A stretch of DNA of 24,000 bases from Aestuariivirga sp. Lineage in GTDB: Bacteria > Pseudomonadota > Alphaproteobacteria > Rhizobiales > Aestuariivirgaceae. Both the position numbers and the translations under genes were made by a program. The stretch spans positions 330,116 through 354,115 of the forward strand of contig NZ_JBKBKI010000001.1 of the NCBI RefSeq assembly GCF_046294715.1. The letters are read 5' to 3'. Shown here one piece after another: positions 1-18,064 of this stretch; position 1 is the stretch's first letter; every line of letters begins with the position of its first letter. Under the pieces are notes generated by a model, which searched no databases, was not told where the DNA came from, and saw only the letters and a program-made list of their open reading frames with translations.

Positions 1-1589
1 AAGACCGCATCCCGGATTCGCTTGCAGAAGCGGTCAGGTCATTTGTGTTTGCCTGCGCTGTTCGCGCGCTCCGGGGTCAGGGTAACAGGCATTCTTCCAT
101 GCTCATCCACGTCACCCGGTTTACTTCCGTGCAGAATGTGGTTGTAAACCAGGTTGCAGAATACCTCCGCAATCTCAAGGGGCGATACACCCGTGGTATC
201 GATCTCGCCGATCTCGAAGCATCCATGAAGAGCGAGTACGAGACAGCTTTCCGGCCCAATATGCAGCGAATCCGCAGTGCGCTGGTGGAGGGAGAGACGC
301 TCGAAGACTTCAGCTGGGACGACTTGCGAAAAGTACTTCCGGATATCCTTTCAGACATCCGGGTGCGCGAAATCAATGGCACCGCGAAGGATGCGCTGGA
401 CTACGCGGAGAACGAGGGTACCGGACTCAAGGTGATCGCCATCGGTGGCGACAAACTGGCGCGTGGCCTTACACTCGAGGGGCTCTGCACTAGCTACTTC
501 CTGCGAACTGCACGCATGTATGACACGCTGATGCAGATGGGCCGGTGGTTCGGCTATCGGGATGGCTACCTCGATGTCTGTCGTCTCTACACGCCGACAG
601 AGTTAACAGAGTGGTTTGGCCACATCGCTGATGCTGCCGAGGAGCTGCGTCAGGAATTCGACAATATGGTTGCGGCAGGTGCAACACCGAAACAGTTCGG
701 TCTTCGGGTCAAGTCCCATTCGGTACTGACTGTTACATCACGCGCCAAAATGCGAAACGCACGTGCAATGCAGCTGACCTACTCCGGAGATCTGTTGCAG
801 ACAATTGTCTTTCCAAACCGGAAGGATGACATCACAGCCAATTTCCGCGCTGCGGAGCGCTTCATACAAGCTCTGGGGTCGCCGCTCGACCTGAATCAGC
901 AGTATTTCGTCCCAGACGGACAAAAGTGGAGCGGCCACCTGTGGAGGGACGTGCCAGTCTTGAACGTGATCACATTTCTTCGCGAGTATAGGACCCATCC
1001 TGCAAGCTTTCGGATCATGAGCCCTCTCATCGCCGACTTTATCGAAGAGATGAACAAGGATCAGGAGCTGATCAACTGGACTGTAGCGATGATTGGCAAG
1101 GAAAGCGGCCCGGATGAAATCAGCCGCATTGTCGGCGGCTGCGCGATCAACATGCTGCAGCGCAAGCGTACCACCGAACATGCTGACCGCTATTCGATCA
1201 AGGCACTGACTTCGCCCCGAGATCAGGCCATCGATCTCACCGAAGATCAATGGACAGCCGCCCTCGAGCTCAGCCGGAAAATCTGGCGCAATGATGTGGA
1301 CCGCAATGAGGGAAAGGACCCTCCAACGGAACCCCGGGGACCACAGATCCGCCGGATTCTCGGCGAGGGCAATCCTGATACCGGCCTGCCTCATCGTCGG
1401 GATCGCGGACTGCTGATGCTCTATCTCCTGGATCCGGCCGGGGCCAGTGTCCCGGAACTCGCTGACGCAGATCCCATCGCTGGGTGGGCAATCAGCTTCC
1501 CGTCGAGCACATCGGAGCGAAGGGTTTCGAATTCGAAATACATGGCCAACAGTGTCCTGTGGGGAGGACTAAATGACTGGGTGGAGTGA
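1..1589 (+). CDS. Z1 domain protein (SF2-helicase-like C-terminal core plus Z1 region), 5'-truncated by the window edge
   Basis: Frame 3 is open from nt 3 with no upstream stop, so the GTG at 45 in the ORF track is not the true start. It contains GGDKLARGLTLEGL...YDTLMQMGRWFGYRDGYLDVCRLY, a helicase motif-VI-like Q-x-GR-x-x-GYR block that I recognise as typical of Pfam Z1 (PF10593) proteins. Its TGA at 1587-1589 lies inside the next gene (17-nt overlap). Confidence 0.8.
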   Translation, partial: DRIPDSLAEAVRSFVFACAVRALRGQGNRHSSMLIHVTRFTSVQNVVVNQVAEYLRNLKGRYTRGIDLADLEASMKSEYETAFRPNMQRIRSALVEGETLEDFSWDDLRKVLPDILSDIRVREINGTAKDALDYAENEGTGLKVIAIGGDKLARGLTLEGLCTSYFLRTARMYDTLMQMGRWFGYRDGYLDVCRLYTPTELTEWFGHIADAAEELRQEFDNMVAAGATPKQFGLRVKSHSVLTVTSRAKMRNARAMQLTYSGDLLQTIVFPNRKDDITANFRAAERFIQALGSPLDLNQQYFVPDGQKWSGHLWRDVPVLNVITFLREYRTHPASFRIMSPLIADFIEEMNKDQELINWTVAMIGKESGPDEISRIVGGCAINMLQRKRTTEHADRYSIKALTSPRDQAIDLTEDQWTAALELSRKIWRNDVDRNEGKDPPTEPRGPQIRRILGEGNPDTGLPHRRDRGLLMLYLLDPAGASVPELADADPIAGWAISFPSSTSERRVSNSKYMANSVLWGGLNDWVE

Positions 1590-2577
1590 GGAAGGGCTCT
1601 CACGGGCCTGGAGGGCGCTCGCGCGCCAGGAGGCAGGTGAGGACTGGCGTTTTGTTCACCTCACGAAGATGGCTGAGGTTTCGGTGGAGGCTGGCTGCCA
1701 CTTTCCGGCAGGGCGTGAGGCACTGATAGTCACTTTCCCCGGGGCATGGCCGGTCAATCCGGCGCGCCTTCCGGAGGGCAAGGGCTTCGATGTCCACTGT
1801 ATTGCAGGTCAGCAGGCCTTCGCGGGGCAGACTGCGATCGCTCTTGTGCGGCGTGTCGAGGGATCGCCAGACATCTTCGCGGTCATGGCGGTGGACGTGC
1901 TGCGAACTCTCGGCGCTGCGGCATCCACATCTCACCGCAACACGCTGGACTCCTTCCTCGAGAGGGTCAGGGAGTGGCAGGCGTTCATGGCCAAAACCCA
2001 CCGGCCGCTCTCGCCCGACGCCCAGGTCGGGCTGATGGGAGAACTCTGGATGCTCCGGTTGCTGATGGAATCCCCGCTTGGGGTGGGGGCTCTTGACTGC
2101 TGGCACGGGCCACTGCGCGCCGCCCAGGACTTTCACGTGCGCGCGGGCGCCATAGAAGTGAAGAGTACCGTACGCACGGGCGCCTTTCTTGCTCGCATCA
2201 ACAGCATCGAGCAGCTGGACAGTGAGCGGACGCCGGTTTTCCTGTGTGCAATGCGCTTCGAGGAGAGTACAGAAGGAACCTCGCTTGTTGACCTCGTAAC
2301 CGCTCTTCGCGGCAGGTTCACAGAGGCAGGAACTGTGCGAGGCTTCGAAGCCCTCCTGATGGTGATGGGCTATCTTGATGAGCATTCTTCACTCTACGGG
2401 CGCTCCCTCGTGCTCAAGGACGCCAGGGCCTTCCTCTCGGATGGTAACATGCCACGCCTGACGCGGGCCGCCTTGCCAGCTGCAGTCCGCTCAGCGGCAT
2501 ATGTAGTCGATCTCGACGCCGTTGAGGTTCCTGCGGTCGCGATTCCGGACGTATTGCAAGCATTTGGACTGAATTGA
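1573..2577 (+). CDS. PD-(D/E)XK motif nuclease-fold protein (DUF4420-like)
   Basis: 334-aa ORF with a GGAGGA Shine-Dalgarno 5 nt upstream of ATG 1573. The C-terminal half carries AQDFHVRAGAIEVKST, a D...E-x-K restriction-endonuclease-fold signature. Its position between Z1 and AIPR genes is the usual context for the DUF4420 family (PF14390). Confidence 0.7.
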   Translation: MTGWSEEGLSRAWRALARQEAGEDWRFVHLTKMAEVSVEAGCHFPAGREALIVTFPGAWPVNPARLPEGKGFDVHCIAGQQAFAGQTAIALVRRVEGSPDIFAVMAVDVLRTLGAAASTSHRNTLDSFLERVREWQAFMAKTHRPLSPDAQVGLMGELWMLRLLMESPLGVGALDCWHGPLRAAQDFHVRAGAIEVKSTVRTGAFLARINSIEQLDSERTPVFLCAMRFEESTEGTSLVDLVTALRGRFTEAGTVRGFEALLMVMGYLDEHSSLYGRSLVLKDARAFLSDGNMPRLTRAALPAAVRSAAYVVDLDAVEVPAVAIPDVLQAFGLN

Positions 2578-2578
2578 T

Positions 2579-4390
2579 ATGAACCTCGAAGAATTTCACC
2601 GCAACTTCCGTTCTGACGTCCAACAGACTGTCGCAGACCGTGTTCGCGCTGACGACGGCCCCTTTCCTTCCGAAGAGCTTGTCTTTTCGGAGACAGTCAT
2701 GGAACACGTGGCAGAAACAGTAAGTTGTGAGACACCGGTTGTATGCCACTGGAATGGCACGATCGGAAACGCGAAGCTTCGCATCACCGGTTATGCCCTT
2801 TCTTCTGATGAGACGGCTCTGGATCTCTTCGTTTCAAACTACTTCGGGACCGAGGCGATAAGTGACCTGACCGATGCAGGTGCAGTCGCAACCGCCACTG
2901 AAGGCATCCGCTTCCTGTTCCGCGCTGCAGGGGGAAACCTCGAGAGCCGCATAGATCCCACGCACCCGGTTCGTGATCTTGTTTCAACGATCCGGTCAAG
3001 ATGGGCTAACCTTGATCGTCTCCGCGTGTTTGTAATCACTGACGGGCGCACAAAGGCAAAGCGGTTCGCTGACAAGGAAGTCCACGGCAAAATGGTCGCT
3101 GTGGAGGCGATGGACATCGAACGCCTGTTCCGCCACACCGAAGGCAAGCCGAGAGATGAACTCTCGCTCAGCCTTGTCCAGTCGGTCGGACGCCCGCTCC
3201 CATGTGTTCATGTCCCCGATCCCGACGCTGACTATGAATACGTGCTCACAGCAATCCCGGGCCAGATCATCAGGGATCTGTACCTCCGGTTTGGCTCAAG
3301 ACTTCTTGAGGCAAATGTACGTACGTTCCTCGGTACGAAGAAAACTGTGAACAGGGGCATCATCGAAACTCTCAGGATGGAGCCCGAACACTTTCTGGCC
3401 TTCAACAATGGTCTGGTTCTTGTCTGTGACAGGGCAGAATTCGAACAGACCAAAGATGGATACATCGGTCTTTCATTTGTCAAGGGCCTGCAGATAGTTA
3501 ATGGCGGTCAGACCACTTCCACCATCTACTTTGCATCCCGCGATGACCGCACCATCGATCTCAGCCACGTCATGGTGCCTGCAAAGATAATCATTCTGAA
3601 GGGATCAGACGACGACGCCCGCGAGAAGCTGATCAGCAACGTATCGCGCTTTGCCAACAGCCAGAATGCAGTCAAACTGTCAGATCTGTCTGCAAACCGG
3701 CCATTCCATGTTCAGCTCGAGAAGCTGGCGAACGAAACCTGGTGCCCTGACGGCTCGGCGAGGTGGTTTTACGAACGTGCTGCAGGCGCATATAATGTGA
3801 TGTTGCTGCGTGAGGGCACCACTCCTGCTCGCCGCAACAAGCTGAAGGAGATTGTCTCCCCAAAGCGCAAGCTGACCAAGAACGATATCGCCAAGTTTCA
3901 CGAGGCCTGGCGTGGCAAACCCAGTCAGGTGGCAATGGCAGGTGAAAAGAATTTCGCAGCATTCATGGCCGCTCTGGATGAAGACCCCTCGATTGTGCCC
4001 AATCCCCTTGATACGCGCTGGTATCATTCGATGATAGCCAAGGTCATACTCTTCAAGTCCATAGAGAGCATGATCAAGACCAAAGAGGCAAAGACGGTTT
4101 TTCGGCAGGGTTGGGTCAATATTGCAACCTACGTTGTTTCGGTCGTGGCAGACCGATTAGGCGACCGGCTTGATCTTGAACAGATCTGGCTCCGTCAGGA
4201 CATTTCCTCGGGTCTCCGCGATCTGTTGTGGGAGTGGGCTCTGGTTGTGAATTCGGTCTTTGGCAGCATCGCTCCGGGACAGCAGATTTCGGAAGTAGCG
4301 AAGCGCATCGATACTTGGAACAGGGTGCGCGCTGCCACATTTCCAGAACCGAAGGCTAACATTCCGGAACTCAGACAGCCATCGCACTGA
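2579..4390 (+). CDS. AIPR (abortive-infection phage resistance) family protein
   Basis: 603-aa ORF starting 1 nt after the preceding TGA. The central block LAFNNGLVLVCD...GLQIVNGGQTTSTIY resembles the conserved core of AIPR (PF10592). Size and neighbourhood (Z1, PD-(D/E)XK) fit that family. Confidence 0.75.
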   Translation: MNLEEFHRNFRSDVQQTVADRVRADDGPFPSEELVFSETVMEHVAETVSCETPVVCHWNGTIGNAKLRITGYALSSDETALDLFVSNYFGTEAISDLTDAGAVATATEGIRFLFRAAGGNLESRIDPTHPVRDLVSTIRSRWANLDRLRVFVITDGRTKAKRFADKEVHGKMVAVEAMDIERLFRHTEGKPRDELSLSLVQSVGRPLPCVHVPDPDADYEYVLTAIPGQIIRDLYLRFGSRLLEANVRTFLGTKKTVNRGIIETLRMEPEHFLAFNNGLVLVCDRAEFEQTKDGYIGLSFVKGLQIVNGGQTTSTIYFASRDDRTIDLSHVMVPAKIIILKGSDDDAREKLISNVSRFANSQNAVKLSDLSANRPFHVQLEKLANETWCPDGSARWFYERAAGAYNVMLLREGTTPARRNKLKEIVSPKRKLTKNDIAKFHEAWRGKPSQVAMAGEKNFAAFMAALDEDPSIVPNPLDTRWYHSMIAKVILFKSIESMIKTKEAKTVFRQGWVNIATYVVSVVADRLGDRLDLEQIWLRQDISSGLRDLLWEWALVVNSVFGSIAPGQQISEVAKRIDTWNRVRAATFPEPKANIPELRQPSH

Positions 4391-4426: not shown

Positions 4427-5390
4427 TCATCGTAATTGGTGCCACGCTTTCCAGCGGTTGCGCAAAGCTTCCCGCGACGGCGATAGATTACCAAGATCTT
4501 CGTAGCCGTGTCGGCGTACGCGCGTATCAAGATGAATCGCCAATGTGTCAGGATGGATGACCATCAGGTTCAGGTCGAACAAGGTATGCATATCCGTCCG
4601 AAGTAGCAGTCCGTTCTCGGGGTGATTATCCTGCTCGCTCCGATATGGCCAGATGTGGGTAAGCGTCCGGTCTCGGCCGCCTTGTTTTGGTAACAACACA
4701 CGTGCCATTGTATCGCCTGATGAGCGTGTTTCGGAATAAGCGCTGCCCTCTTCGCGTGGCAATCTCTCGCAGCACTCGTCTCCTCTGATTAAGCGTCGAA
4801 GGTTCAAATGGCGCTTCGGCACTGTCCTCAGCTGCATCGTCCGGCTTCAGTGCAGAAGTCATCGCACATACTGACACAGCCTCGGCAGCCCTCTTGGAGC
4901 GAAGTTGTAGTAGTACCTCAAGCCCGGCAAGGTCCAGCTCCTCGATTGAGATCTGGTCATTTGGACGGAGAGCCAATCCTTTGAGCTGCTGTGCCGTAAT
5001 CCCCTCTGGCAGTTGTTGAAATGTGTCCCCGAAATCGGCGGTGTATTGGACTACGGCTTCCTCCATAGCTATTGGAGTACCGAATACATGCCCCTTTGCA
5101 CAGCGCCAGGGTGGGCTCATCGTGGGTCGCCGTTTGATGCTCGTAGTGTTACACTCCGGGCACCGCTGAATAATCTTGGTTCCGGGTTCTTCCGAGATGG
5201 AAACTATCCGGGCCAACCCCTGCGCCACTTCGCGGTCCCGGACTACGACGAGGTCTCCGGAAGCCAGCTGCCGATGATTCGCAACGTTGCTGTCGTAGCG
5301 GTACTGGCGCCCGGGCATATCGGCGTAACCAGTGTTACCTCCGTACTGCCGGTCGTCACCCAGAGTGATGATGCTCCAAGCCCTTGCCAT
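4427..5390 (-). pseudogene. HNH endonuclease (HNH_2-type, putative modification-dependent/Type IV-like), disrupted by a frameshift
   Basis: Two overlapping minus-strand ORFs (4626-5402 and 4427-4837) together read as one protein. ORF1 ends ...RQRLFRNTLIRRYNGTCVVT, the conserved block that precedes the HNH core. ORF2, in another frame, continues ...GGRDRTLTHIWPYRSEQDNHPENGLLLRTDMHTLFDLNLMVIHPD, the HNH core. The frame change must lie between 4667 and 4694, where an A4 run (plus-strand T4, 4685-4688) is present. The likely start is ATG at 5390 rather than TTG at 5402. Confidence 0.75.
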
Positions 5391-5497
5391 GCTCACTATC
5401 AATCACGTCTCTCGGGATGGAAATCGCCATGATCTCAATTCGGCCGCGACGTTGAAGTCTTTGCTTCCGCTTTCCCCCTTGTACTTCAAACAGCCGG

Positions 5498-5660: not shown

Positions 5661-6941
5661 GTGCCCATGCCGAAAAAACCAAAGACCCACCTGAAGGACC
5701 TGCGGGAACGCGCAGGCCTGAGCCTTGCCGAGGCCGCCTTCCGGGCCGGGTGCAGCGAGCGCCAGATGCGGCGCTACGAGGACGGCACGCACGAGCCCTC
5801 CCCGCTCTATGTGAAGCTCCTGGAAGAGGAGATAGCGCGACGCGCGAAGCACGAGGCAGGCCCGCCCGCCTTCACCTTCATTGACCTCTTCGCCGGTATC
5901 GGCGGCCTGCGGCTGGGCTTCGAGAGCATCGGCGGCAAATGCGTGTTCACCAGCGAGTGGGACAAGTATTGCAACGAAACCTACCGCGCCAACTTCCCAG
6001 GCGATGACCACGAGATTGCCGGTGATATCCGGCCTTATGGCGAGCACCCGGAGAAGATACCGAAGTTCGACGTTCTCCTGGCAGGTTTTCCCTGCCAGCC
6101 GTTCTCCATTGCAGGCGTCTCCAAGAAAAACGCCCTGGGGCGGCCGCACGGCTTCGATTGCGACAAGCAGGGCACGCTGTTTTTCGAGATCGAGCGGATT
6201 ATCAGGCACCACCGGCCCGCCGCCTTTCTCTTGGAGAACGTGAAGAACCTGGAGCGTCATGACAAGGGCCGCACCTTCGCGGTTATCATGGACACACTGA
6301 CCCGCGAGCTGGGCTACAGGACGGTGAAGCACCGCGTCATCAGCTCTGACCCCTGGGTGCCACAGAAGCGCGAGCGCATCTTCATCGCAGGCTTCAGGGA
6401 CGAGAGCAGCTTTACTTTCGAGAACTTCGAGCCGGATGGCCCGCACCCGCGCCTAGGCAGCATCCTGAACGGCCATAACCGTGTGCCGGAGAAGTACACT
6501 CTCACCGCCCATCTCTGGCAGTATCTCCAGGACTACAAGGAGAAGCACGCCAGCAAGGGCAATGGCTTCGGATGCAGCGTGTTCGGTCCCAACGATGTGA
6601 CCCGCACGCTGTCAGCCCGCTACTACAAGGACGGCTCTGAAATCCTCATCGAGCAGAAGGGTACCAGACCGCGCCGCCTCATGCCCGACGAGTGCGCAAG
6701 GCTTATGGGCTTTGTGCATCATGACGGCCGCGACTGGATTATCCCTGTATCCGATACCCAGGCGTACAAGCAGTTCGGCAATGCCGTGGTGGTGCCGGTG
6801 GTGAAGGTCGTGGCGCGGCACATGGAGCCGCATATCCTGGAGGCTGTGGCGCGTGACCGGAAGAAGGTGACCCCCTTCCCTGCCCCGCCGAAGGCGGAGG
6901 CCGTGAAGGCGAAGCCGAAGAAGAAGGCCGCGCATGGCTGA
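5661..6941 (+). CDS. dcm: DNA (cytosine-5)-methyltransferase, Dcm/M.EcoRII-like, with an N-terminal XRE-type HTH and a Lys/Ala-rich C-terminal tail
   Basis: All canonical C5-MTase motifs are present: FIDLFAGIGG (I), GFPCQPFSIAG (IV, catalytic Cys), ENVKNL (VI) and QFGNAVVVP (X). Long blocks match my recollection of E. coli Dcm (SEWDK, GVSKKNALGRPHGF, QGTLFF, TRTLSARYYKDGSEILI, RPRRLMPDECARLMGF, IPVSDTQAYKQFGN). Residues ~8-60 (LKDLRERAGLSLAEAAFRAGCSERQMRRYEDG) form an HTH. The start is either GTG 5661 or ATG 5667. Confidence 0.95.
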   Translation: MPMPKKPKTHLKDLRERAGLSLAEAAFRAGCSERQMRRYEDGTHEPSPLYVKLLEEEIARRAKHEAGPPAFTFIDLFAGIGGLRLGFESIGGKCVFTSEWDKYCNETYRANFPGDDHEIAGDIRPYGEHPEKIPKFDVLLAGFPCQPFSIAGVSKKNALGRPHGFDCDKQGTLFFEIERIIRHHRPAAFLLENVKNLERHDKGRTFAVIMDTLTRELGYRTVKHRVISSDPWVPQKRERIFIAGFRDESSFTFENFEPDGPHPRLGSILNGHNRVPEKYTLTAHLWQYLQDYKEKHASKGNGFGCSVFGPNDVTRTLSARYYKDGSEILIEQKGTRPRRLMPDECARLMGFVHHDGRDWIIPVSDTQAYKQFGNAVVVPVVKVVARHMEPHILEAVARDRKKVTPFPAPPKAEAVKAKPKKKAAHG

Positions 6942-7389
6942 TATCGTCGCGCCCGAGGTCCGCAGCCGCATGATGGCGGGAATCCGGGGGCGCGACACCA
7001 GGCCGGAGCTTGTGCTCCGCCAGGGTCTGCATCGGGCCGGATTCCGCTACCGGCTGCATGTGAAGGGCATTCCCGGCAAGCCTGACATGGTGTTTCCGAA
7101 GCACCGCGCGGTAATCTTCGCGCACGGGTGTTTCTGGCACGGGCATGACTGCGCCCTCTTCAAATGGCCGTCGACCCGGCAGGAGTTCTGGCGCACCAAA
7201 ATCACCGGCAACGTGGCGCGGGACGCGAAGGTGAAAGAGAGCCTGCTGGCGGCAGACTGGCGCGTGCTCACCGTCTGGGAATGTGCACTGAAAGGGCCGG
7301 GCAGGCTCACGGCCGGGGACGTGATTGCCCGGTGTGCTGCATGGCTGCGCTCAGCACGGCAGCACGACGAGATAAGGGGGACGAAATGA
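6934..7389 (+). CDS. vsr: Very short patch repair endonuclease
   Basis: 151-aa ORF with Vsr hallmarks: RSRMMAGIRGRDTRPEL, GKPDMVFPKHRAVIFAHGCFWHGHDC, FWRTKITGNVARD and VLTVWECAL. ATG 6934 overlaps the methylase stop by 8 nt. Confidence 0.95.
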   Translation: MADIVAPEVRSRMMAGIRGRDTRPELVLRQGLHRAGFRYRLHVKGIPGKPDMVFPKHRAVIFAHGCFWHGHDCALFKWPSTRQEFWRTKITGNVARDAKVKESLLAADWRVLTVWECALKGPGRLTAGDVIARCAAWLRSARQHDEIRGTK

Positions 7390-8618
7390 GCCCGGTCCGC
7401 AGAGGCCTTGTGTCCGACCTTTTTGAAGGCGTGGTGGCCAAGCGGCTCACGCTGGTCGAGACGGTCACAGAGCGGTCCAACCAGCATGAGTTTCAGGGAA
7501 CGGAGCCGCTACGCGCCCTGTTCGGAGACGCCAACCGCAAGGGCATATCCACCCGTTTCATCCGCTTCACGACGGATGGCGACACCGTCAGCGAGGACGG
7601 TTTCATCAGTTGGTCCAACGTGCGCGAGGGCAAGCCCCGTGCCGCCGAGTATCACTGCTACTACAACGGCAATGCCGTAACGAACGCCATGCAGGTTGGC
7701 GAAACCCTGTTTCTAGCGCTCCGTCGCGACGGCACAGCGCTGGCCATCATCACGCCGCCCGACAGCACGACCCAGAGCCAGCTGGTCTGGCTGTTCGGTC
7801 TCACAGACGCAGCCGTGTCCGGCATCGAGTTCAGGGATATCGCCCACGAGCAGCCGAAGGAGCTGAGCCTTGCCGCCCGCTATGTGCTGGACGAGCTGGG
7901 CATCGTCATTGAGGAGGAAGGCGCAGACCTGGACGGCCTGACTGAGAAATTTGGCGTGGAGTTTCCGACGACACGGGTATTCTCGGAGCTGGCCCGCTCC
8001 TCTCTTGGCAGGGAGGTCGAGGCCCGCGACAATCCCGACACCGTATTGATGGCGTGGCTGGAACGCGAGGAGCTGCTGTTCCGTCGCCTAGAGCGCCGCG
8101 TGGTGGCCGAGCGCCTGAAGGGAGGCTTCATATCGGCCGGAGGCGAAGCCAATGTGGAAGACTTCATCGCCTTCTCTCTCAGCGTCCAGAACCGCCGCAA
8201 GGCTCGTGCAGGGCAGTCACTGGAGCTACACCTTGAGGCCCTTTTCAGCGCTCACGGTATCCGTTTTGCACGCGGGGGTGAGACAGAGAACAAGAACAAG
8301 CCGGATTTTCTGTTTCCCGGAGCGGCCGAGTACCGTGATGAGACCTTCCCCGTGGCCCGTCTCACCATGCTGGGAGCCAAGTCCACACTGAAGGACCGCT
8401 GGCGGCAGGTACTTTCAGAAGCCCGCAGGATCGAACACAAGCACCTTGTCACACTTGAGCCTAGTATCTCGGAAGCCCAGACGAACCAGATGCAGGCCGA
8501 GAAACTTCAGCTGGTAGTGCCGAAGCGGATTCAGGAGACATTCCGCGTCGGACAACGGACGTGGCTTATGACGGTATCGGATTTTGTCGGGTTGGTGAGA
8601 GAGCGGCAGGCATTATGA
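7386..8618 (+). CDS. Type II restriction endonuclease, EcoRII family
   Basis: The C-terminal half (SVQNRRKARAGQSLELHLEALF...NKPDFLFPG...YRDETFPVARLTMLGAKSTLKDRWRQVLSEARRIEHKHLVTLEPSISEAQ...LQLVVP) closely matches my recollection of the EcoRII catalytic domain (SNRRKSRAGKSLELHLE...KKPDFLFPS...MLAVKTTCKDRWRQILNEA...LVVP). ATG 7386 overlaps the vsr stop (ATGA). The 410-aa length compares with ~404 aa for EcoRII. The 7164-7385 extension in the ORF track lies inside vsr and is not credible. Confidence 0.85.
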   Translation: MSPVRRGLVSDLFEGVVAKRLTLVETVTERSNQHEFQGTEPLRALFGDANRKGISTRFIRFTTDGDTVSEDGFISWSNVREGKPRAAEYHCYYNGNAVTNAMQVGETLFLALRRDGTALAIITPPDSTTQSQLVWLFGLTDAAVSGIEFRDIAHEQPKELSLAARYVLDELGIVIEEEGADLDGLTEKFGVEFPTTRVFSELARSSLGREVEARDNPDTVLMAWLEREELLFRRLERRVVAERLKGGFISAGGEANVEDFIAFSLSVQNRRKARAGQSLELHLEALFSAHGIRFARGGETENKNKPDFLFPGAAEYRDETFPVARLTMLGAKSTLKDRWRQVLSEARRIEHKHLVTLEPSISEAQTNQMQAEKLQLVVPKRIQETFRVGQRTWLMTVSDFVGLVRERQAL

Positions 8619-8668: not shown

Positions 8669-9805
8669 ATGCCAAAAGAGGAAATCCCCATAAATCCGGC
8701 TATAGTCACGTGGGCGCGCGAGCGCTCCGGCTTGACTGTTGAGGATGCAGAGCAATCCTTCAAGAATATTGAAGCTTGGGAAGCGGGAGAAGTATTTCCC
8801 TCCTATCCCCAGCTTGAGCAGATGTCTGAAGCGTTCAAGATTCCAATAGCAGTTTTCTTTTTCCCATCCCCACCTTCGACTCCTCCGATAGCGGAAACAT
8901 TCCGCACCTTGCCGGACGCCGAGTTCTCACATCTTCCCAACCAGGTCAGGCTTCTTCTCAGGAAGGGCAAGGCGATGCAGATGAACCTTGCGGAGTTGAA
9001 TCAGGGGCGCAATCCGGCCGAGAGGCTTATAACCCGTGACCTGACCTTTCCCCCACAAATTGGCGTGGCAGACATGGCACGCGAGGTAAGGGAATATCTC
9101 GGCATTGACATTGAAACCCAGAAGTCTTGGGAGGATGCAGATACAGCGCTGAAGGAGTGGCGCAGCATCCTGCTCAAAGTTGGGGTCTACGTATTCAAGG
9201 AAGCTTTCAAGGCCAGGGACTTCTCAGGCTTCTGTCTGTATGATGAATTGTTCCCGGTCATCTACGTCAACAACAGCGCCTCGAAGACCAGGCAGATATT
9301 CACTATTTTCCACGAGCTGGCGCACCTCCTCTTCCATACCAGCGGCATAGACAAGATTCACGACGACTACATTGCCAAACTGGACGACCAGTCCCAGAGG
9401 ATTGAGATCCTCTGCAATGAATTTGCAGCCCGCTTCCTGGTACCTGAAGATGCATTCAGCAAGGAGCTTCTGGGCAAGCAGCCAACCGAGGCATCGGCAA
9501 CGCAGATTGCATCCCTGTTCCATGTCAGCAGGGAGGTCATCTTCCGTATGTTTCTGAGCCGACGGCTCATCACGGAACAGGTCTATACTGAGGCAGCGAA
9601 GCGTTGGGCAGAGCAGAAAAAGGAAGGAAGCGGAGGCGACTATTATCGGACCAAAATCGCCTATCTCGGCCGGGATTACATATCACTCGCATTCAATCAG
9701 TATTACCGCAATCGCATCGATAGAGAGCAGCTTGCGGAATACCTCGATACCAAGCCGAAGAACCTTGGTGCTCTTGAAGAGTATTTTGTCCGGGGTGGTG
9801 CATAA
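8669..9805 (+). CDS. XRE-family HTH fused to an ImmA/IrrE-type (COG2856, DUF955) zinc metallopeptidase
   Basis: The N-terminus (VTWARERSGLTVEDAEQSFKNIEAWEAGEVFPSYPQLEQMSEAFKIPIAVFF) is an HTH_XRE-like domain. The HExxH zinc motif is HELAHLLFH (nt 9311-9325 encode HELAH). This architecture is typical of HTH-COG2856 fusions. Confidence 0.85.
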   Translation: MPKEEIPINPAIVTWARERSGLTVEDAEQSFKNIEAWEAGEVFPSYPQLEQMSEAFKIPIAVFFFPSPPSTPPIAETFRTLPDAEFSHLPNQVRLLLRKGKAMQMNLAELNQGRNPAERLITRDLTFPPQIGVADMAREVREYLGIDIETQKSWEDADTALKEWRSILLKVGVYVFKEAFKARDFSGFCLYDELFPVIYVNNSASKTRQIFTIFHELAHLLFHTSGIDKIHDDYIAKLDDQSQRIEILCNEFAARFLVPEDAFSKELLGKQPTEASATQIASLFHVSREVIFRMFLSRRLITEQVYTEAAKRWAEQKKEGSGGDYYRTKIAYLGRDYISLAFNQYYRNRIDREQLAEYLDTKPKNLGALEEYFVRGGA

Positions 9806-10272
9806 TGTACGTGTTCGATACCTCCCCGCTGTCTGCGCTCTTCAAGAACTACTACCCTGCCCGCTTCCCATCGCTATGGACCAAGTTTGACGGGCTAGTC
9901 ACGAGTGGCGCCGTTGTATCAACGCGAGAGTGCTTCCGGGAACTGGTAGACGGCCCGGTTGAAAGTGCTGTGCAGTGGGCCTCGGATAACAAGCATATAT
10001 TCGCCACTCCTGTTGCCGATGAAGGCAAATTTGTTGCGCAGATTTATGGTGTGCCACACTTCCAGCAGAACATTGAGGCCCAAAAAATTCTGAAAGGGGG
10101 CAAGAATGCAGACCCCTTCATTATCGCCAAGGCAGCTGTGGAGAAACGGTCAGTTGTCACAATGGAGCAGTTCAAAACCAACGCTGCAAAGATTCCGAAT
10201 ATCTGCAAACACTTTGGCGTTTCGTGCCTGTCACTTGAAGAATTTATGGAAGCTGAAGGTTGGAAATTCTAG
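9805..10272 (+). CDS. DUF4411 family protein (PIN-like nuclease fold), putative toxin/effector partner of the upstream HTH-peptidase
   Basis: 155-aa ORF whose ATG overlaps the upstream TAA (TAATG). The N-terminal MYVFDTSPL and later KNADPFIIAKAA resemble the conserved acidic positions of DUF4411/PIN-like proteins. Adjacency to an HTH-ImmA/IrrE gene is the usual DUF4411 context. Confidence 0.7.
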   Translation: MYVFDTSPLSALFKNYYPARFPSLWTKFDGLVTSGAVVSTRECFRELVDGPVESAVQWASDNKHIFATPVADEGKFVAQIYGVPHFQQNIEAQKILKGGKNADPFIIAKAAVEKRSVVTMEQFKTNAAKIPNICKHFGVSCLSLEEFMEAEGWKF

Positions 10273-11123: not shown

Positions 11124-11510
11124 TCATTTCTGTATGATCAGGTCACGAAATGCTACAAAGGCGCGATTGGTCTCTGCGGCGCGACGTGCCTTCTCCTCCA
11201 GGACTTCGATCAACGACACCTTGCGTGAGAGGACCTCGTACAGATCAAGCCCGTCGGCGCAAATCAGATTGGTTTGTCGTCCACGCGAAAATGCCTCCAA
11301 CCCGTCGGCCGAGAAGCCGGAATTGCTGACGAACAGACCGCGCGACCAAGAGGCTTTGCCGGCGACCTTCCCAGAGAACGTCATCAAGTCGGCGAATCCA
11401 ATCTGCGGCCCATGCCACTTAGCTTCCACCAAATAAGTCTGTCCCTGCAGATTAAAGCTGCCGTCGATCTGCTCGCCAACGAGGCGAAACGCACCGCGTG
11501 GCGCCAGCAT
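11124..11510 (-). pseudogene. C-terminal fragment of an Mrr-like (PD-(D/E)XK) restriction endonuclease domain protein
   Basis: [70 protein letters not shown] is a D...E-x-K Mrr_cat-type core. An in-frame stop sits 5 codons upstream of the first Met, and the N-terminal part normally found in this family is absent. Confidence 0.6.
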
Positions 11511-12273
11511 CGACCCGCGTCGGAGTTAGGCCGAGTGTGAGCGGAACGGCGTGCTGCTCACCCGCGATGGCGATCAGGCGGTCGCTGATCCGCTGCGCGG
11601 TAGCAACCACCTCGGCATGGCCGGCAAGCTCGGCTTGCGCCTCGTTTACTTGATCTTGGATTTCGTCGCGAGCGTCTTCGTCAAGCGAAGTGGCCAACTG
11701 TTCGATCAACGGCCTCAGCGGCGAATTTCGCCAGCTCGACAGGTCTTTCTCGGCGTCGCGCAGCGCCACCTGAACGTCGAGCGGTAGCATCCGGCGCAAG
11801 GATGACCCGATCGCCATATCGGGATCGTCGCCGCCGAAAATGACATACTCGTAGTCGGCCAGACTTTCGGGATTACGGCCGAGATTTCCCTTTGGCTGGA
11901 AGCGGTAAGTGAGACGCGCGACCATGGGCGGGCCTGGGTCCACTACGCAGTCGTTAAGGTGCGCCATCAGGCGCGGGTCGCCGGTGAAATCGGTCAGATC
12001 GACAGAGATTTCGATCGTCTCGCCTAGCTTGTCCTCGTTCAGGACGTCCCAGAAGTGTTCGAGGCCGAGTTGGCGATCACGCTCCGACAGCCCAGGATCG
12101 AGGATCAATTGCAAGGCGCGAATGAAGTTGCTTTTCCCAACCTTGTTTTCACCGACAATGACAATGCTGGAGCCAGTCTTTACTTCAAGGGCCGAAAAAT
12201 TGGCGAAGTTCTTGATCGTAATCGATGATATGTGCAATGCATTACACTCTATGTTCGGAAACTGAGACAACAT
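11452..12273 (-). pseudogene. N-terminal fragment of an OLD-family/ABC-type (AAA_15-like) ATPase
   Basis: ITIKNFANFSALEVKTGSSIVIVGENKVGKSNFIRALQLILDP is the N-terminal beta-strand plus Walker A of OLD/Gabija-GajA-like ATPases. ALRDAEKDLSSWRNSPLRPLIEQL is the typical mid-region. The ABC signature, Walker B and any nuclease domain are missing, and the ORF ends in out-of-context sequence that overlaps the Mrr fragment. Confidence 0.6.
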
Positions 12274-12470: not shown

Positions 12471-12710
12471 ATGGCAAAGAAGGCAATCAAGTCCAAGAAG
12501 CAGGCAGCGAACAAGACCCAGCAGATCCTCGGATTGCTCCAGCGCCCAAATGGCGCATCGATCCCCGAACTGATCAAAGCCACTGAATGGCAAGCGCACA
12601 GCGTGCGCGGGTTCCTGGCCGGGACGGTCAGGAAGAAGATGGGCCTGGATATCACCAGCAGCCGGGAGGATGGCAAGGACCGCCGTTATCGCATCGCCGG
12701 AGCCCAGTGA
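12471..12710 (+). CDS. DUF3489 domain protein (module 1)
   Basis: AAGGAG Shine-Dalgarno before ATG 12471. LLQRPNGASIPELIKATEWQAHSVRGFLAGTVRKKMGLDITSSREDGKDRRYRI matches the GWQxHSVRGFxxGxxxKKxGL...RxYRI signature I associate with DUF3489 (PF11994). The 12321 start in the ORF track covers the non-coding leader. Confidence 0.75.
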   Translation: MAKKAIKSKKQAANKTQQILGLLQRPNGASIPELIKATEWQAHSVRGFLAGTVRKKMGLDITSSREDGKDRRYRIAGAQ

Positions 12711-13288
12711 TGGCTTGTCAGAAGCAACATGGCATCGGCAAGGCAGCGCCCGACACAGAGGTTGGGCGCCAGTTGCTGCAGCAGATCCACATGCTGCAGG
12801 ACAAGAGTATTGCCCAGTTAAAGTCACAGTGGAAGGAGTTGATCAGTTCAGAGCCGCCGCGGCATGCGAAGCGGAGTTTCCTGACGCAGACGATTGCGTG
12901 GGAGCTCAAGGCAAATACCTTCGGCAAGCTGAAGCCCGGCATCCACCGTCAACTCCTGCAAGCGGGTCGTGGTGGAGGAGATGAGAAGCCGCTGGTGTCA
13001 GAGTTTGCGTCTCCGATCTTGCGCCCCGGAGTAAAGCTGATCCGGGTCTGGAAGGGCGTGACCCACCATGTGCTGGTGACGGAGGATGGCTTCCTCTGGC
13101 AGGAGCGCTCATGGCGCAGCCTGTCGGTCATCGCCCGAGAGATCTCCGGCACGCCGTGGTCCGGGCCGGTATTCTTCGGTCTGAAGAAGTCGAAGACTGT
13201 TCGTGACGGGATGCGCAGCACTCTCGGGGTCGATGACGGCATTGGGGACCATTCTTTGGGCATCGATAAGGTGGCGTCCCATGGCTAG
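12710..13288 (+). CDS. DUF2924 domain protein (module 1)
   Basis: ATG 12710 overlaps the upstream TGA (TGATG). LKSQWKELISSEPP...RSFLTQTIAWELKANTFGKL...LRPGVKLIRVWKGVTHHVLVTEDGFLWQERSWRSLSVIAREISGTPWSGPVFFGL is the DUF2924 (PF11149) pattern. Confidence 0.75.
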   Translation: MACQKQHGIGKAAPDTEVGRQLLQQIHMLQDKSIAQLKSQWKELISSEPPRHAKRSFLTQTIAWELKANTFGKLKPGIHRQLLQAGRGGGDEKPLVSEFASPILRPGVKLIRVWKGVTHHVLVTEDGFLWQERSWRSLSVIAREISGTPWSGPVFFGLKKSKTVRDGMRSTLGVDDGIGDHSLGIDKVASHG

Positions 13289-14778
13289 CCCACCCAAGAC
13301 CGTCCGCTGTGCCATCTATACCCGAAAGTCTTCCGAAAAAGGCCTTGAGCAGGACTTCAACTCGCTGGATGCCCAGCATGAAGCCTGCGAAGCCTACATC
13401 AAGAGCCAGAAGCACGAGGGCTGGGAAGCCGTTCATCACAAGACGGGCCGCCTGACGCTCAATGTTCTGCTCTCCTTCGCTCAGTTCGAGCGCGAGGTCA
13501 CCGGCGAGCGCATCCGGGGCAAGATCGCAGCCTCCAAGAAGAAGGGCATGTGGATGGGAGGCTGCGTCCCGCTGGGTACCGGGTCGAGAAGCGGGAACTG
13601 GTCATCGACGAGCAGGAGGCCCAGCATATCCGGACGGTCTACGAGAAGTACCTCGAGCTTGGCTCGGTCCGCTCCGTAAAGGATGCGGTCGATACCTTGG
13701 GCATTACCAGCCGCCCCACCTCAAGGACGTCTGGCAGCTTTCTGGGCCGTGGTCACATCTACCGCATCCTGACCAACCCCATCTACATGGGCAAGATCTC
13801 GCACAAGGGTGTCTTGAGCGAGGGTCAGCACAAGGCGATCATTGAGCCCAAGACTTGGCAGAAGGTGCAGGAGATGCTGCAGGCCAACAATGCCCGGGAG
13901 CGGGACCAGCCCAATGCTGCGGTATCGAGCCCTCTCGCCAGCATCATCTTTGATGAACAAGGTAAGCGGCTCACCCCCAGCCATGCGGTCAAGGGTGGCA
14001 GGCGGTACCGGTACTACATCTCGAATGTTCTCGTGCGCGAGCCGGGCAACACAAGCGGCATCAGATTATCGGCGCCCGAGATTGAGACTGCGGTCTGCCA
14101 GATCATACACGGCGTTCTACGCGATACCCAGCAGGTGGCATCGATCATCGCAGCGCCCGATCCATCGCCATCCGAAATTGAAGAGTTTGTTGGCCGAGCC
14201 AAGACGTTCGTCAACAGCATCACCAAGAAGCCAGCCTATGAACTGCTGATCGGCCTCAAGCCCGCGTTGGCCCATATCGTTATTGGGACGCAGCAGATCA
14301 TCCTGTCGCTAAAGCGAAGCGCCTTGGAACCATTGTCCGTGGCGCACCAGGACAACAGTCTCACGGAGAACTCATCGCAGTATCAAGCGCGACGAATGAC
14401 CTCCTCACCCTCTCACTGCCGATCCGCGTAGGACGGCGCGGTCGCGAGACTCGCATCATCCTCCAAAGTGGCCAAACCCGGCAGCGGCCTGTCGACCAGT
14501 CACTCGTCACTATGATCGCGCGGGGCTATGCCTGGTGGCACCAGATTGCCGTTGGCGAGGTGAACTCAATGCTAGACATCGCCAAGCGTGAGAAGCTCAC
14601 CGACAGCTATGTGAGCCGCATCGTCACGCTCGGGTTCCTCGCGCCAGACATCATTACTGCAATTCTGGAAGGCACCGCCCCTGCAGAACTGACAGCCAAC
14701 CGACTGCAGGCGCTTCATGATCTCCCGCTCGACTGCCCGAGCCAGCGGCAGATCCTCGGGTTTGCAGCTGCGGGATAA
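13281..14778 (+). pseudogene. Large serine recombinase, decayed (internal deletion of the catalytic domain plus at least two frameshifts)
   Basis: The N-terminus VRCAIYTRKSSEKGLEQDFNSLDAQHEACEAYIKSQKHEGW parallels the intact paralog. It then jumps straight to GRLTLNVLLSFAQFERE, so ~80 aa are missing at ~13425-13447. A frame change occurs at ~13571-13580 (GGCVPLG | YRVEKRELVIDE). The reading frame breaks again near 14400-14511. The C-terminal homology (YVSRIVTLGFLAPDIITAILEG) resumes in ORF 14512-14778. Confidence 0.8.
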
Positions 14779-15248
14779 GTCGCAAGACCATCCGGTGAGT
14801 GAAGAGGCAGCTTTCGAACATGGCGCTGCCTTCACACGTTCCGGTCTCAATATCTGGCTGGGATCGACGACCGCCTGGCCTATAAATCCGAAGAGCGCAC
14901 CAGCTTCTCGCTTTCGATGAATTGCTAGGCAGTTGAACGATAAATGTCGTGGAACCCGATGCTCATGACTTTCACTGACTGCATCACCCCATGATGGTTT
15001 GCATCGGAGATCTTGACTGCCGAAACGCCAAACTAAGAATTCCGAGCAGATCGGCGCGAAAATCCAAGTTGTCTCGGGTGCGGTTCGAAGACCCCGATGC
15101 TAGCCGACGCAAAGCAGGCCCAATCCGCAGGCTTTTTGCGCTACCGACGATACACCTAAGGAATTTATGAAAACACTAGGAATTAATGACGGACCAGATG
15201 GAATTCGAACAGAAGGTACAGTCCCTCTTTCTTCCAGCTTTCCACTCG

Positions 15249-15375
15249 ACTTCCTGCCGAAAGGAAGCATGTGTGGGGACACGACGCCCGGCCAATTGGC
15301 TGACAGCGTCGATAGCCCGCCCCAAGCGGGCTTGCGGTGGTGGGAGGCTTTGGCCTCCGGAACAGGAGAACCACC
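15249..15375 (+). promoter_or_regulatory. Structured leader upstream of DUF3489 gene (copy 2)
   Basis: Hairpin 1: CTTCCT(15250-15255)/AGGAAG(15262-15267). Hairpin 2: GCCCGC-CCCAA-GCGGGC (15315-15331). GGTGGT (15336-15341) is complementary to ACCACC (15370-15375). Hairpin 3: GGAGGC(15343-15348)/GCCTCC(15353-15358). Compared with copy 1, hairpin 3 has three compensatory base-pair changes. Confidence 0.4.
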
Positions 15376-15681
15376 ATGACCATCAAGAAATCTGGCTCAA
15401 CCTCGAAGCAAACCAAGAATTCAGCGCCTGGCACTCGTTCGAAGCAACCCGCCAAGAAGCCGCCTCCCGCACCTCTGAGCAAGTCCCAGACCATCCGGGC
15501 GCTACTAGCTCGTCCGCAGGGAGCGACCACCTCGGAACTCTCGGAAGCTACCGGCTGGCAGGTTCATAGCGTGCGAGGATACCTGTCGAGGACGTTGAAG
15601 AAAAAGCTTGGTCTCATGCTTGATTCGTCCAAGGACGAAGGTGGCCGCCGTTATTGGCTCACCGAAGCTGTCCGCTCATGA
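15376..15681 (+). CDS. DUF3489 domain protein (module 2)
   Basis: CAGGAG Shine-Dalgarno before ATG 15376. It has a Lys/Pro-rich N-terminus followed by LLARPQGATTSELSEATGWQVHSVRGYLSRTLKKKLGLMLDSSKDEGGRRYWL. Confidence 0.8.
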   Translation: MTIKKSGSTSKQTKNSAPGTRSKQPAKKPPPAPLSKSQTIRALLARPQGATTSELSEATGWQVHSVRGYLSRTLKKKLGLMLDSSKDEGGRRYWLTEAVRS

Positions 15682-16127
15682 GTAGGACGGAAGAGCTCTT
15701 GGCAGGACTAGCCGGGGCGGATCTGCAGAGCCTGCGGGACGAGTGGAAGCGTCTTTCTGACGACGACGCTCCGCCCCCCATGAGCAAGGAACTGCTCAGG
15801 CTTGCCATCGCCTACAGGAGACAGGAACAGGAGTTCGGCGGCTTGAGCCGCCGGACCTCCACCCGGCTGAGGGCACTGCGCAATGGTGGCAATACGAGTG
15901 TGCACCTGAGTGGCGAGGCCTTGCCCCTGAAGCCGGGCGTCAAGCTGCTGAGGGAGTGGCAGGGCAAGGTTCATGAAGTTCTGGCTCTGGAGGACGGCCG
16001 ATTTGCCTACGGTGGAAAAGTCTGGAGATCGCTGAGCGAGATTGCCCGGGAGATCACCGGAGTGCGCTGGTCTGGTCCCCGATTTTTTGGGACCCGGGAT
16101 CGGAAGAGGACAGGGCCCCATGGCTGA
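15678..16127 (+). CDS. DUF2924 domain protein (module 2)
   Basis: ATG 15678 overlaps the upstream stop (ATGA). LRDEWKRL...LLRLAIAYRRQEQEFGGLS...LKPGVKLLREWQGKVHEVLALEDGRFAYGGKVWRSLSEIAREITGVRWSGPRFFG. Confidence 0.8.
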   Translation: MSRTEELLAGLAGADLQSLRDEWKRLSDDDAPPPMSKELLRLAIAYRRQEQEFGGLSRRTSTRLRALRNGGNTSVHLSGEALPLKPGVKLLREWQGKVHEVLALEDGRFAYGGKVWRSLSEIAREITGVRWSGPRFFGTRDRKRTGPHG

Positions 16128-17814
16128 GCGTCCAGTCATTCGCCGCTGTGCGATCTATACCCGGAAGTCCTCCGAGGAAGGGTTGGATCAGGCCTACAAC
16201 TCCCTTGCGGCGCAGCGAGATGCCTGTACGGCCTACATCGCCAGCCAGAAGCATGAGGGCTGGACCTTGGTCCCAAAGGCCTACGACGATGGCGGCTTTT
16301 CAGGCGGCAATCTCCAGCGGCCTGCGCTTGAGGAACTGATGGAGGATATCAGGAAGGGCGAGATCGATATCATCGTGGTCTACAAGATCGACCGGCTTAC
16401 CCGATCCCTAGCAGACTTCGCCAAGCTCACGGAGGTCCTAGACCGGCACAACGTGTCCTTTGTGGCCGTCACCCAGCAGTTCAACACCTCGACATCAATG
16501 GGTAGACTAACGCTCAACGTGTTGCTCTCCTTTGCCCAGTTCGAGCGTGAAGTGGCCGGCGAGCGCATCCGCGACAAGATCGCCGCTTCCAAGAGGCGGG
16601 GTATGTGGATGGGGGGCCATCCGCCGCTTGGCTATGAGGTGAAGGCGAGAAAGCTGGTCGTCGTTCCGGAGGAGGCCAAGACCGTACGACACCTCTTCCG
16701 TCGCTACCTGGACCTTCGTTCCGTGCAGCTCCTGCGCAGGGAGCTGGATAGCTCCGGGACACGATCGAAACGCAAGGTCTTGCAGGATGGCTCGGTGGTG
16801 GGTGGTGTGACCTTCTCCCGGGGCGCCCTGTACACGATTCTCAAAAACCCGCTTTACCGGGGCCGGATCCAACACAAGGGCGAGTGTTTTCCCGGGGAGC
16901 ACGAGCCAATCATCGAGGAGAAGCTGTTTTCGGAGGTCCAGCGGGTCTTGGAACAGCAGGGGCCCGGAGATGAGGCTCGCCGCAAGCTGGCCTCACCTGC
17001 CCTGCTCAAGGGGCTGGTGTTCGACGCTCAAGGCGAGCGGCTGCAACCAACCCATTGCAGCAAGGGGAGAACGAAGTACCGGTACTACACTTCGAAGTCG
17101 TTGTTGAAGGAGGGGAGGCCCCAGGCGACGAGCGGATTCCGGGTTCCCGCTCCTGACCTCGAGATGATCGTCATCCGTTCACTGGCGGGCCACTTGAGAA
17201 ACCAGCAATGGGTTGCTGCTCTCATACACAGTCCCAGAGACCTTCCGCCCGCACTGCAAAAGGCACAGGGCATTGCGGTCGATATCGAGAGGCAGCCGAT
17301 CATTAACACCGGGATGATCGGCGACCTCGTTACCCGCATCACCATGGATAAGAGAAACTTACATCTCAGGATCAACAGGGACCGGCTTGTCGCCCTCCTC
17401 ACCGGCCGGCACCCCGAGAAGACACAGTCGCCGCTGAATAGTCTGCCCCTCGAGATCGACATCACCAGCCACCTTCTCCGGTGTGGGAAGCAGGTACGCC
17501 TGGTGATCGACGAAACCGGGGGCCAGCCAGATTCCGACCCTCACCCCCGCCTTGTCGGCGAAATCCTGAGAGCCCGTCGGTGGTTCGATGCGCTCTCATC
17601 CGGAGAGGTCCCGACCATTGCAGCGCTAGCGCAAGCCGAGGGCGTCTCGGCGTCCTACATCAGCCTGAAAATCAGCCTCGCCTTCCTGGCACCAGACATC
17701 GTTGAGACCATCATCGACGGCATGCAACCGATGTCGCTCACGCCGGAACGGCTCAAGAAGGCCTGCCCACTGCCCGCTTCCTGGGAAGAGCAGCGCGCCT
17801 TGCTGCTGGCCTGA
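16120..17814 (+). CDS. Large serine recombinase (resolvase/invertase-type catalytic domain plus recombinase and zinc-ribbon-like C-terminal region), apparently intact
   Basis: ATG 16120 overlaps the DUF2924 stop by 8 nt. RCAIYTRKSSEEGLDQAYNSLAAQ contains the catalytic Ser region. Also present are IDIIVVYKIDRLTRS, GRLTLNVLLSFAQFEREVAGERIRDKIAASKRRG and the recombinase domain GGHPPLGYEV. Length is 564 aa. Confidence 0.9.
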   Translation: MAERPVIRRCAIYTRKSSEEGLDQAYNSLAAQRDACTAYIASQKHEGWTLVPKAYDDGGFSGGNLQRPALEELMEDIRKGEIDIIVVYKIDRLTRSLADFAKLTEVLDRHNVSFVAVTQQFNTSTSMGRLTLNVLLSFAQFEREVAGERIRDKIAASKRRGMWMGGHPPLGYEVKARKLVVVPEEAKTVRHLFRRYLDLRSVQLLRRELDSSGTRSKRKVLQDGSVVGGVTFSRGALYTILKNPLYRGRIQHKGECFPGEHEPIIEEKLFSEVQRVLEQQGPGDEARRKLASPALLKGLVFDAQGERLQPTHCSKGRTKYRYYTSKSLLKEGRPQATSGFRVPAPDLEMIVIRSLAGHLRNQQWVAALIHSPRDLPPALQKAQGIAVDIERQPIINTGMIGDLVTRITMDKRNLHLRINRDRLVALLTGRHPEKTQSPLNSLPLEIDITSHLLRCGKQVRLVIDETGGQPDSDPHPRLVGEILRARRWFDALSSGEVPTIAALAQAEGVSASYISLKISLAFLAPDIVETIIDGMQPMSLTPERLKKACPLPASWEEQRALLLA

Positions 17815-17883
17815 ACTCCACTCCAATAGTCAGTCTTTATCGCGACGCATCTATTGGAAGCGGTTCTACCCCCCTATCAGGAT

Positions 17884-18030: not shown

Positions 18031-18064
18031 CAGCTGTCATTCTCATGGTTCGACGTGGATGGAT

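Follow-up and report, generated by a model that had tools for sequence, protein, structure and literature searches.

We analysed a stretch of 24,000 nucleotides of the Aestuariivirga sp. contig NZ_JBKBKI010000001.1 (RefSeq assembly GCF_046294715.1, positions 330,116 to 354,115 of the forward strand), hereafter called the window. Its first 4,390 nucleotides (nt) encode three proteins whose profile matches identify the region, with near certainty, as the 3' part of mzaC followed by the complete mzaD and mzaE genes of the mzaABCDE anti-phage system. The three genes are the following, with the values of the profile matches in brackets.

1 to 1589, + strand: 3' part of mzaC (open reading frame (ORF) 45 to 1589; the frame is open from nucleotide 3 and the left edge of the window cuts the gene)
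1573 to 2577, + strand: mzaD, coding for a DUF4420 PD-(D/E)XK nuclease of 334 residues (Pfam DUF4420, 2.1e-73; PADLOC MzaD, 3.8e-55; NCBIfam NF041934, 2.7e-86)
2579 to 4390, + strand: mzaE, coding for an AIPR_N + AIPR protein of 603 residues (Pfam AIPR, 1.6e-85, and AIPR_N, 6.1e-40; PADLOC MzaE, 2.1e-156; NCBIfam NF041935, 6.2e-204)

The ATG of mzaD at 1573 precedes the stop codon of mzaC (1587-1589), which creates a 17-nt overlap, and a GGAGG sequence is found at 1563-1567, 5 nt 5' of the mzaD start. A gap of 1 nt separates the stop codon of mzaD (2575-2577) from the ATG of mzaE at 2579. The same overlap and gap are present in relatives such as L009 and L005 (L numbers denote individual loci of the collection described below). 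This co-directional, tightly coupled C-D-E order is the one that membership in Mza requires. An earlier reading of the window, made from its letters alone (hereafter the sequence-only reading), had described three same-strand ORFs joined in this manner, the first of them running off the left edge. The coordinates bear out both statements, and the arrangement goes far beyond chance.

NCBIfam equivalog models entitled 'MZA anti-phage system associated ...' exist for MzaA to MzaE (NF041931-NF041935; PADLOC PDLC02203-02207), and the matching model is the sole hit for each of the three proteins (4.9e-153 for MzaC, values for MzaD and MzaE as listed). PADLOC, run on the genes of the window, also called MzaC, MzaD and MzaE. 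The MzaC fragment (5.9e-158) aligns to profile positions 434-944 of 952, corresponding to the C-terminal 55% of MzaC, and the ~430 N-terminal residues with the DEAD half and the Walker motifs fall outside the window. MzaE covers its PADLOC profile end to end (positions 1-585 of 598). The region therefore belongs to a system already known and named, of which it is the distal part. A point on the other side is that the scores do not reach the cut-offs of the equivalog models NF041933-NF041935 (511 versus 1500 for the truncated MzaC, 290 versus 420 for MzaD and 679 versus 1050 for MzaE), and NCBI therefore gives only the generic product names 'AIPR family protein' and 'PD-(D/E)XK motif protein'. 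Judging from these scores, the locus is a divergent homologue of the already described Mza system and not an NCBI equivalog. The sequences of its MzaD and MzaE are the same as those of MFN4140507.1 and MFN4140508.1 from Aestuariivirga sp., respectively (100% identity for MzaE).

The DUF4420 and AIPR placements put forward by the sequence-only reading are confirmed by Pfam. Its view that the system is uncharacterised and has no name does not hold, since mzaABCDE has dedicated PADLOC and NCBIfam models, the names mzaA-mzaE are used by RefSeq in 55 of 5,426 complete E. coli genomes, and nuclease activity of MzaD has been demonstrated (see below). PMC9523054 cites the mzaABCDE genes of Salmonella and E. 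coli, with mzaA a sigma factor, as a system validated by Gao et al. 2020.

The same reading had also suspected a relation to MADS (methylation-associated defence system), which we consider extremely improbable. Mza and MADS share a common theme only, that of methylation-associated multi-gene defence, MADS being grouped with BREX and DISARM among the methylation-based defences, and all three proteins of the window match Mza models. The mad gene set reportedly includes a kinase. Mad4 is a DUF4276 protein (PMC12065111), and neither a DUF4276 nor a kinase domain was detected among the scanned ORFs of the window.

The motifs that the sequence-only reading had picked out, QMGRWFGYR in MzaC, D...IEVKS in MzaD (DFHVRAGAIEVKS) and NNG...IVNGGQTT in MzaE, were all located in the translations. 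In the family alignments, residues Q178-G184 of MzaC, including Q178-M-G-R181, represent invariant columns, as do N276-G278 and V307-T312 in the FNNG...IVNGGQTT motif of MzaE. E157, D186, E195, K197, Q214 and P294 of MzaD are invariant among 24 sequences and its active site is intact, with D186 and P294 aligning with residues mutated in the E. coli protein.

Searches of the PDB by sequence, with single sequences or profiles, found no solved-structure relatives of MzaC, MzaD or MzaE. An AlphaFold2 model of MzaE built from 107 sequences (predicted local distance difference test score, 78; predicted template modelling score, 0.47) yields no Foldseek hit in the PDB with an E value below 0.39. We considered whether NGGQTT in the IVNGGQTT segment might be a 'DGQQR' NTPase motif of the ParB/DUF262 type. 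No ParB-like protein is present in the Foldseek top 50, and Pfam at E up to 10 yields only AIPR. Confidence in the core region of the model is only moderate, and the idea is thus unsupported rather than firmly excluded.

Left-hand genes and methylase partners of Mza loci

Exact look-ups of MzaD and MzaE recovered a single 13-kb Logan contig, which begins within mzaC, and an exact 45-mer of the left end of the window had no match in a metagenome collection. Relatives were therefore collected by scanning one genome per species with MzaC, which yielded at least 595 relatives, and 80 loci were kept. The gene order is MzaA-MzaB-MzaC-MzaD-MzaE in nine out of nine closest relatives (74-84% identity over the MzaC fragment), and their MzaB is a HATPase_c_3 GHKL ATPase (PADLOC MzaB, 1e-169 to 1e-170). 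The 34 MzaA sequences analysed harbour sigma-70 region 4 in all cases, region 2 in 33, region 3 in 20 and N-terminal ankyrin repeats in 31, and a methyltransferase domain in none. MzaB, MzaC, MzaD and MzaE co-evolve tightly (Spearman rho 0.88-0.95). Based on the sequences of these relatives, the left flank of the window should comprise, in leftward order, the part of mzaC coding for the N-terminal DEAD half, an mzaB gene for a GHKL/MutL-like ATPase of ~500 residues, and an mzaA gene for a protein of 650-850 residues with ankyrin repeats and sigma-70 regions 2-4.

In two close relatives, L009 (4789-7224) and L003 (4684-7221), the C-terminus of MzaA additionally matches the N-terminal part of the GcrA model (3.6e-17), beyond the ankyrin and sigma-70 regions. 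GcrA reads adenine-methylated DNA and binds sigma-70.

According to the sequence-only reading, an ATPase and a dedicated C5-methylase lie just left of the window, and the genes form a self-contained second methylation-based module, independent of the EcoRII-like one. The ATPase part of this model is almost certainly right, a GHKL ATPase being coded upstream in all relatives whose sequence reaches far enough. The presence of a further methylase gene on that side is unlikely, given that mzaA precedes mzaB in this clade. In a minority of loci, a methylase gene precedes the operon, lying before mzaA in L004 and L006, or is its first gene, before mzaB, as in L064, L071, L072, L079 and L082. The latter five form a distant clade (37-42% MzaC identity) devoid of MzaA, in which the C5-methylase gene abuts mzaB; theirs is the architecture that the sequence-only reading had expected. 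In L004 and L006, vsr directly follows mzaE, whereas the window has a probable HNH pseudogene at that place.

To describe the methylase environment, we classed as well flanked the 50 relatives that have 2.5 kb or more of sequence on each side. A C5-methylase is coded within 3 kb of Mza in 47 of them, Vsr in 40 and both in 39, and in 26 of 71 loci vsr is co-directional with mzaE and starts at most 150 nt from the mzaE end. The association with methylases proposed in the sequence-only reading is thereby upheld, in line with Iyer et al. 2008, who already noted genes for cytosine methylases and Vsr in such neighbourhoods. Most often, the partner is a C5 methylase of ~520 residues (PF00145, 1e-43 to 1e-46). 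Others have ~330 and ~357 residues. At least three methylase types occur, every one of them belonging to PF00145. In the closest relatives, the genes for the long methylase and Vsr follow mzaE, with the exception of L004 and L006, where the methylase gene is upstream of mzaA. Co-evolution with the Mza proteins is weak both for the methylase (rho 0.40-0.47; Mantel, 0-1 of 1000 permutations) and for Vsr (rho 0.21-0.31). This coupling is looser than that of MzaB-E, and the methylase and Vsr behave as an exchangeable cassette.

In the window, the genes that follow mzaE are the following.

4427 to 5402, - strand: HNH_2-type endonuclease gene, split over two frames near 4660-4680 (HNH_2, 3.7e-07 for ORF 4427-4837; PADLOC HNH, 9e-04 for ORF 4626-5402)
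5661 to 6941, + strand: gene for a helix-turn-helix (HTH)-fused C5 cytosine methyltransferase of the E. coli Dcm type (Pfam DNA_methylase, 6e-77, and HTH_31; NCBIfam PRK10458, 409 bits, positions 70-467 of 472)
6934 to 7389, + strand: vsr, coding for a very-short-patch T:G mismatch endonuclease (Pfam Vsr, 1.8e-29; TIGR00632, 2.6e-42)
7386 to 8618, + strand: gene for an EcoRII-like restriction endonuclease of 410 residues (Pfam EcoRII-C, 1.1e-68; gene call in L001)

The last three genes (5661-8618) constitute one operon, located 1.3 kb downstream of the Mza genes, with overlaps of 8 nt between the methylase gene and vsr and of 4 nt between vsr and the endonuclease gene. The Dcm matches PRK10458 over nearly its full length, and it is therefore likely to be specific for CCWGG. 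No Pfam EcoRII N-terminal domain was detected in the 410-residue endonuclease. The similarity at the DNA level with the closest relatives extends to 4305-4329, at the 3' end of mzaE, and no further. In the gene that separates mzaE from the C5-methylase gene, the HNH motif begins in ORF 4626-5402 and continues in ORF 4427-4837, and this gene is probably a pseudogene, or else the product of a sequencing or assembly frameshift, outside Mza.

The short Dcm type with Vsr also adjoins Mza in L007, L017 and L020. The usual long methylase is absent from L017 and L020 over ~5 kb upstream and ~7 kb downstream, and from L007 in a sequence that reaches only ~1.3 kb upstream. No locus combines the short E. 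coli-type Dcm with the long type in the sequence examined, which also speaks against a second methylase on the left of the window. The accompanying type II enzyme varies, being of the MvaI/BcnI family in L007, an EcoRII-C protein in L020 and not recognisable in L017, and in the two Caulobacter loci, L017 and L020, the Dcm-Vsr cassette does not occupy the same side of the operon. Because Dcm-Vsr is constant and the type II enzyme variable, the Dcm and Vsr of the window (5661-7389) are the likeliest candidates for the role of Mza partner, shared with the EcoRII-like enzyme, a proposal that we regard as having close to an even chance. The notion of a second module next to an independent EcoRII-like one is accordingly weakened by the lack of the long methylase in L007, L017 and L020. 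On the other side, the short Dcm is paired with a type II enzyme of its own in the window, L007 and L020, and plain adjacency of an independent restriction-modification (R-M) system is possible.

Other traces of such cassettes were noted. In the Caulobacter locus L020, an ORF located 4 nt after mzaE (14355-15173) codes for a protein with 35% identity over 159 residues to the N-terminal, effector DNA-binding part of the EcoRII-like enzyme of the window. Upstream of mzaA in the gammaproteobacterial locus L023 (1530-2678), we found a Dcm fragment (195 residues, HTH and first motif) and a fragment resembling the N-terminus of EcoRII, which look like a decayed Dcm-EcoRII cassette. A truncated 'restriction endonuclease' beside E. 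coli mzaA was also considered as a remnant of EcoRII, and it shows no similarity to it.

A putative methylation-gated restriction machine

Anti-phage activity has been demonstrated for the enterobacterial homologues only. The E. coli mzaABCDE genes provide 1e3-1e4-fold protection against T4(C) and T4(hmC) and ~10-fold protection against wild-type T4, and growth of cells carrying them is not arrested, whatever the multiplicity of infection (bioRxiv 10.1101/2022.06.16.496414). Purified E. coli MzaD cut phage DNA, and the D187A and P297A substitutions impaired this activity (same reference). By analogy with the E. coli system, direct nuclease-based restriction is probable for the locus of the window as well.

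The name of the AIPR family might instead evoke abortive infection, with the AIPR protein killing the infected cell. A PADLOC match to AbiU (4.2e-25) would fit this idea, yet it is weaker than that to MzaE (2.1e-156). Given the lack of growth arrest in E. coli and the direct cleavage of phage DNA by MzaD, we consider it very unlikely.

Starting from the family identity, the intact catalytic residues, the gene coupling and the methylase/Vsr association across relatives, we infer a model with three further elements, namely translocase-nuclease coupling, methylation gating and Dcm sharing. MzaC would be an ATP-driven translocase that delivers the nuclease MzaD to invading DNA or activates it there. 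MzaB would act as an ATP-driven clamp or looping factor, as proposed by Iyer et al. 2008, and MzaE, the AIPR protein, would be a further subunit. The outcome would be direct restriction of DNA rather than abortive infection. Host DNA would be spared owing to 5-methylcytosine laid down by the neighbouring C5-methylase. Vsr would repair the deamination damage that results from methylation and may cooperate with the MutL-like MzaB. In the window, the Dcm-like enzyme coded at 5661-6941 would supply the mark and also guard against the EcoRII-like enzyme. We regard methylation gating of Mza as evenly balanced between true and false, and the explanation as a whole (Mza identity, left-hand genes, nuclease restriction, methylation gating and shared Dcm) as somewhat favoured.

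Several points weigh against this model. The nature of MzaA and MzaB and the lack of a methylase on the left are deduced from relatives, the left half of the locus being outside the window. The role assigned to MzaE is a guess, as its model matches no solved fold. No methylase gene is adjacent to the E. coli locus examined or to the Enterobacter locus L032, and activity was observed for the E. coli system cloned under its five-gene name. Mza may thus work without methylation, or rely on that provided by the dcm of the host. Comparing MzaC, MzaD and MzaE with those of close relatives that pair with a different methylase revealed no swapped specificity segment, divergence being even save for the last 20-30 residues, and this makes it less likely that any of the three contains a sequence-matched reader. 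The weak co-evolution of the methylase and Vsr with Mza and the pairing of the short Dcm with its own type II enzyme, described above, point in the same direction.

Part of these observations would fit a different explanation, in which Mza works without methylation and the methylase and Vsr merely co-travel with it. For instance, MzaA, with its ankyrin repeats and sigma-70 regions, could sense the takeover of RNA polymerase by the phage and license the nuclease. MzaA is indeed a full sigma-like protein with a protein-binding repeat domain, and the E. coli loci without an adjacent methylase, the defence conferred by the E. coli system cloned under the five-gene name, the weak co-evolution, the several unrelated methylase types and the lack of a specificity-like variable segment in MzaC, MzaD and MzaE all agree with this explanation. 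However, the adjacency of a methylase in 47 of 50 loci across many phyla, together with the 26 of 71 loci with vsr within 150 nt of mzaE, is hard to explain by hitch-hiking, and the operon of the distant clade starts with a methylase gene in place of mzaA. A chromosomal dcm-vsr pair is normally present in E. coli and Salmonella hosts, so the cloning results are compatible with methylation gating. The methylase-free enterobacterial loci fit either reliance on the host's dcm-vsr or independence from methylation. On balance, we find the methylation-free explanation less likely than not.

In its most far-reaching form, the methylation-gated model would make Mza a 5-methylcytosine-gated restriction machine that takes its self-mark from any C5-methylase/Vsr cassette. 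The Dcm of the window, probably specific for CCWGG, would then guard against two unrelated nucleases, the EcoRII-like enzyme as well as MzaBCDE, enterobacterial Mza would depend on the host's dcm-vsr, and Vsr, often coded directly after mzaE, would be an integral component working with MzaB. This extended proposal is speculative and, taken in all its parts, rather unlikely to hold.

Defence island and comparison with known systems

The Mza genes are found at one end of a region of ~18 kb, with a GC content of 54-63% up to ~18 kb compared with 66-68% beyond, and this region is a mobile defence island. Its other features are the following.

8669 to 10272, + strand: genes for an ImmA/IrrE M78 peptidase (378 residues; PADLOC RmrA and CapP matches) and, directly after it, a DUF4411 protein
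11124 to 12273, - strand: short Mrr_cat ORF (128 residues) and an ORF whose match is confined to the N-terminal 80 positions of AAA_15
within 12471 to 18297: genes for DUF3489 and DUF2924 proteins
13203 to 13679 and 13550 to 14431: serine recombinase gene split over two frames
16042 to 17814: second, intact large serine recombinase gene
18065 to 18139, - strand: tRNA-Gln gene, at the island end
18221 to 18297, + strand: tRNA-Pro gene, at the island end

The ImmA/IrrE and DUF4411 genes may form a separate toxin-antitoxin-like or defence pair, and the Mrr_cat and AAA_15 ORFs are probably remnants of another pair of defence genes. A search of a plasmid collection with the locus gave a single weak match, and the locus is therefore not a known plasmid.

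In itself the locus is ordinary, adding one divergent Mza to the at least 595 species-level genomes already carrying the system. A review of December 2025 places Mza under 'others', its mechanism being unclassified. The interest lies in the comparative picture, in which a C5-methylase is found in 47 and Vsr in 40 of the 50 well-flanked loci, the methylase types are interchangeable, and the E. coli loci examined have no methylase next to them, in a host that normally carries dcm. If Mza does depend on dcm, this would explain how a five-gene system without a methylase of its own tells self from non-self.

The R-M role of these neighbourhoods was predicted by Iyer et al. 2008 without experiments. 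In the passages searched, the word 'sigma' is absent and the sigma-like MzaA is not described. In the clade of the window, MzaA, and not a methylase, is coded by the first gene.

CglI, another of the closest known systems, is described as consisting of three genes whose products form an R2H2 complex; Mza has five genes. M.CglI is a C5-methylase, and the nuclease subunit of CglI combines a B3-like DNA-binding domain with a PLD nuclease. The nuclease of the window is a PD-(D/E)XK protein of the DUF4420 family, and it thus departs from the B3 + PLD architecture generally ascribed to CglI and NgoAVII-type enzymes. Mza also adds GHKL ATPase, AIPR and sigma-like subunits, and its MzaC has no sequence match in the PDB. 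The locus, which by analogy would work like CglI, is not a member of the CglI family.

Systems reported at ~20% identity to MzaBCDE were missed by PADLOC (PMC9523054), whereas the proteins of the window are directly called by its Mza models. Compared with the enterobacterial Mza systems, the window harbours the same three families in the same order and with the same tight coupling, MzaD and MzaE match their profiles over the full length, and MzaD retains the catalytic residues that were tested in its E. coli counterpart. Identity is only 35% for MzaD and ~40% for MzaE (the latter with the Enterobacter locus L032, a 98%-identical proxy of the E. coli locus), and the E. coli locus has neither a methylase gene nor vsr next to it, whereas the window has a Dcm-Vsr-EcoRII operon.

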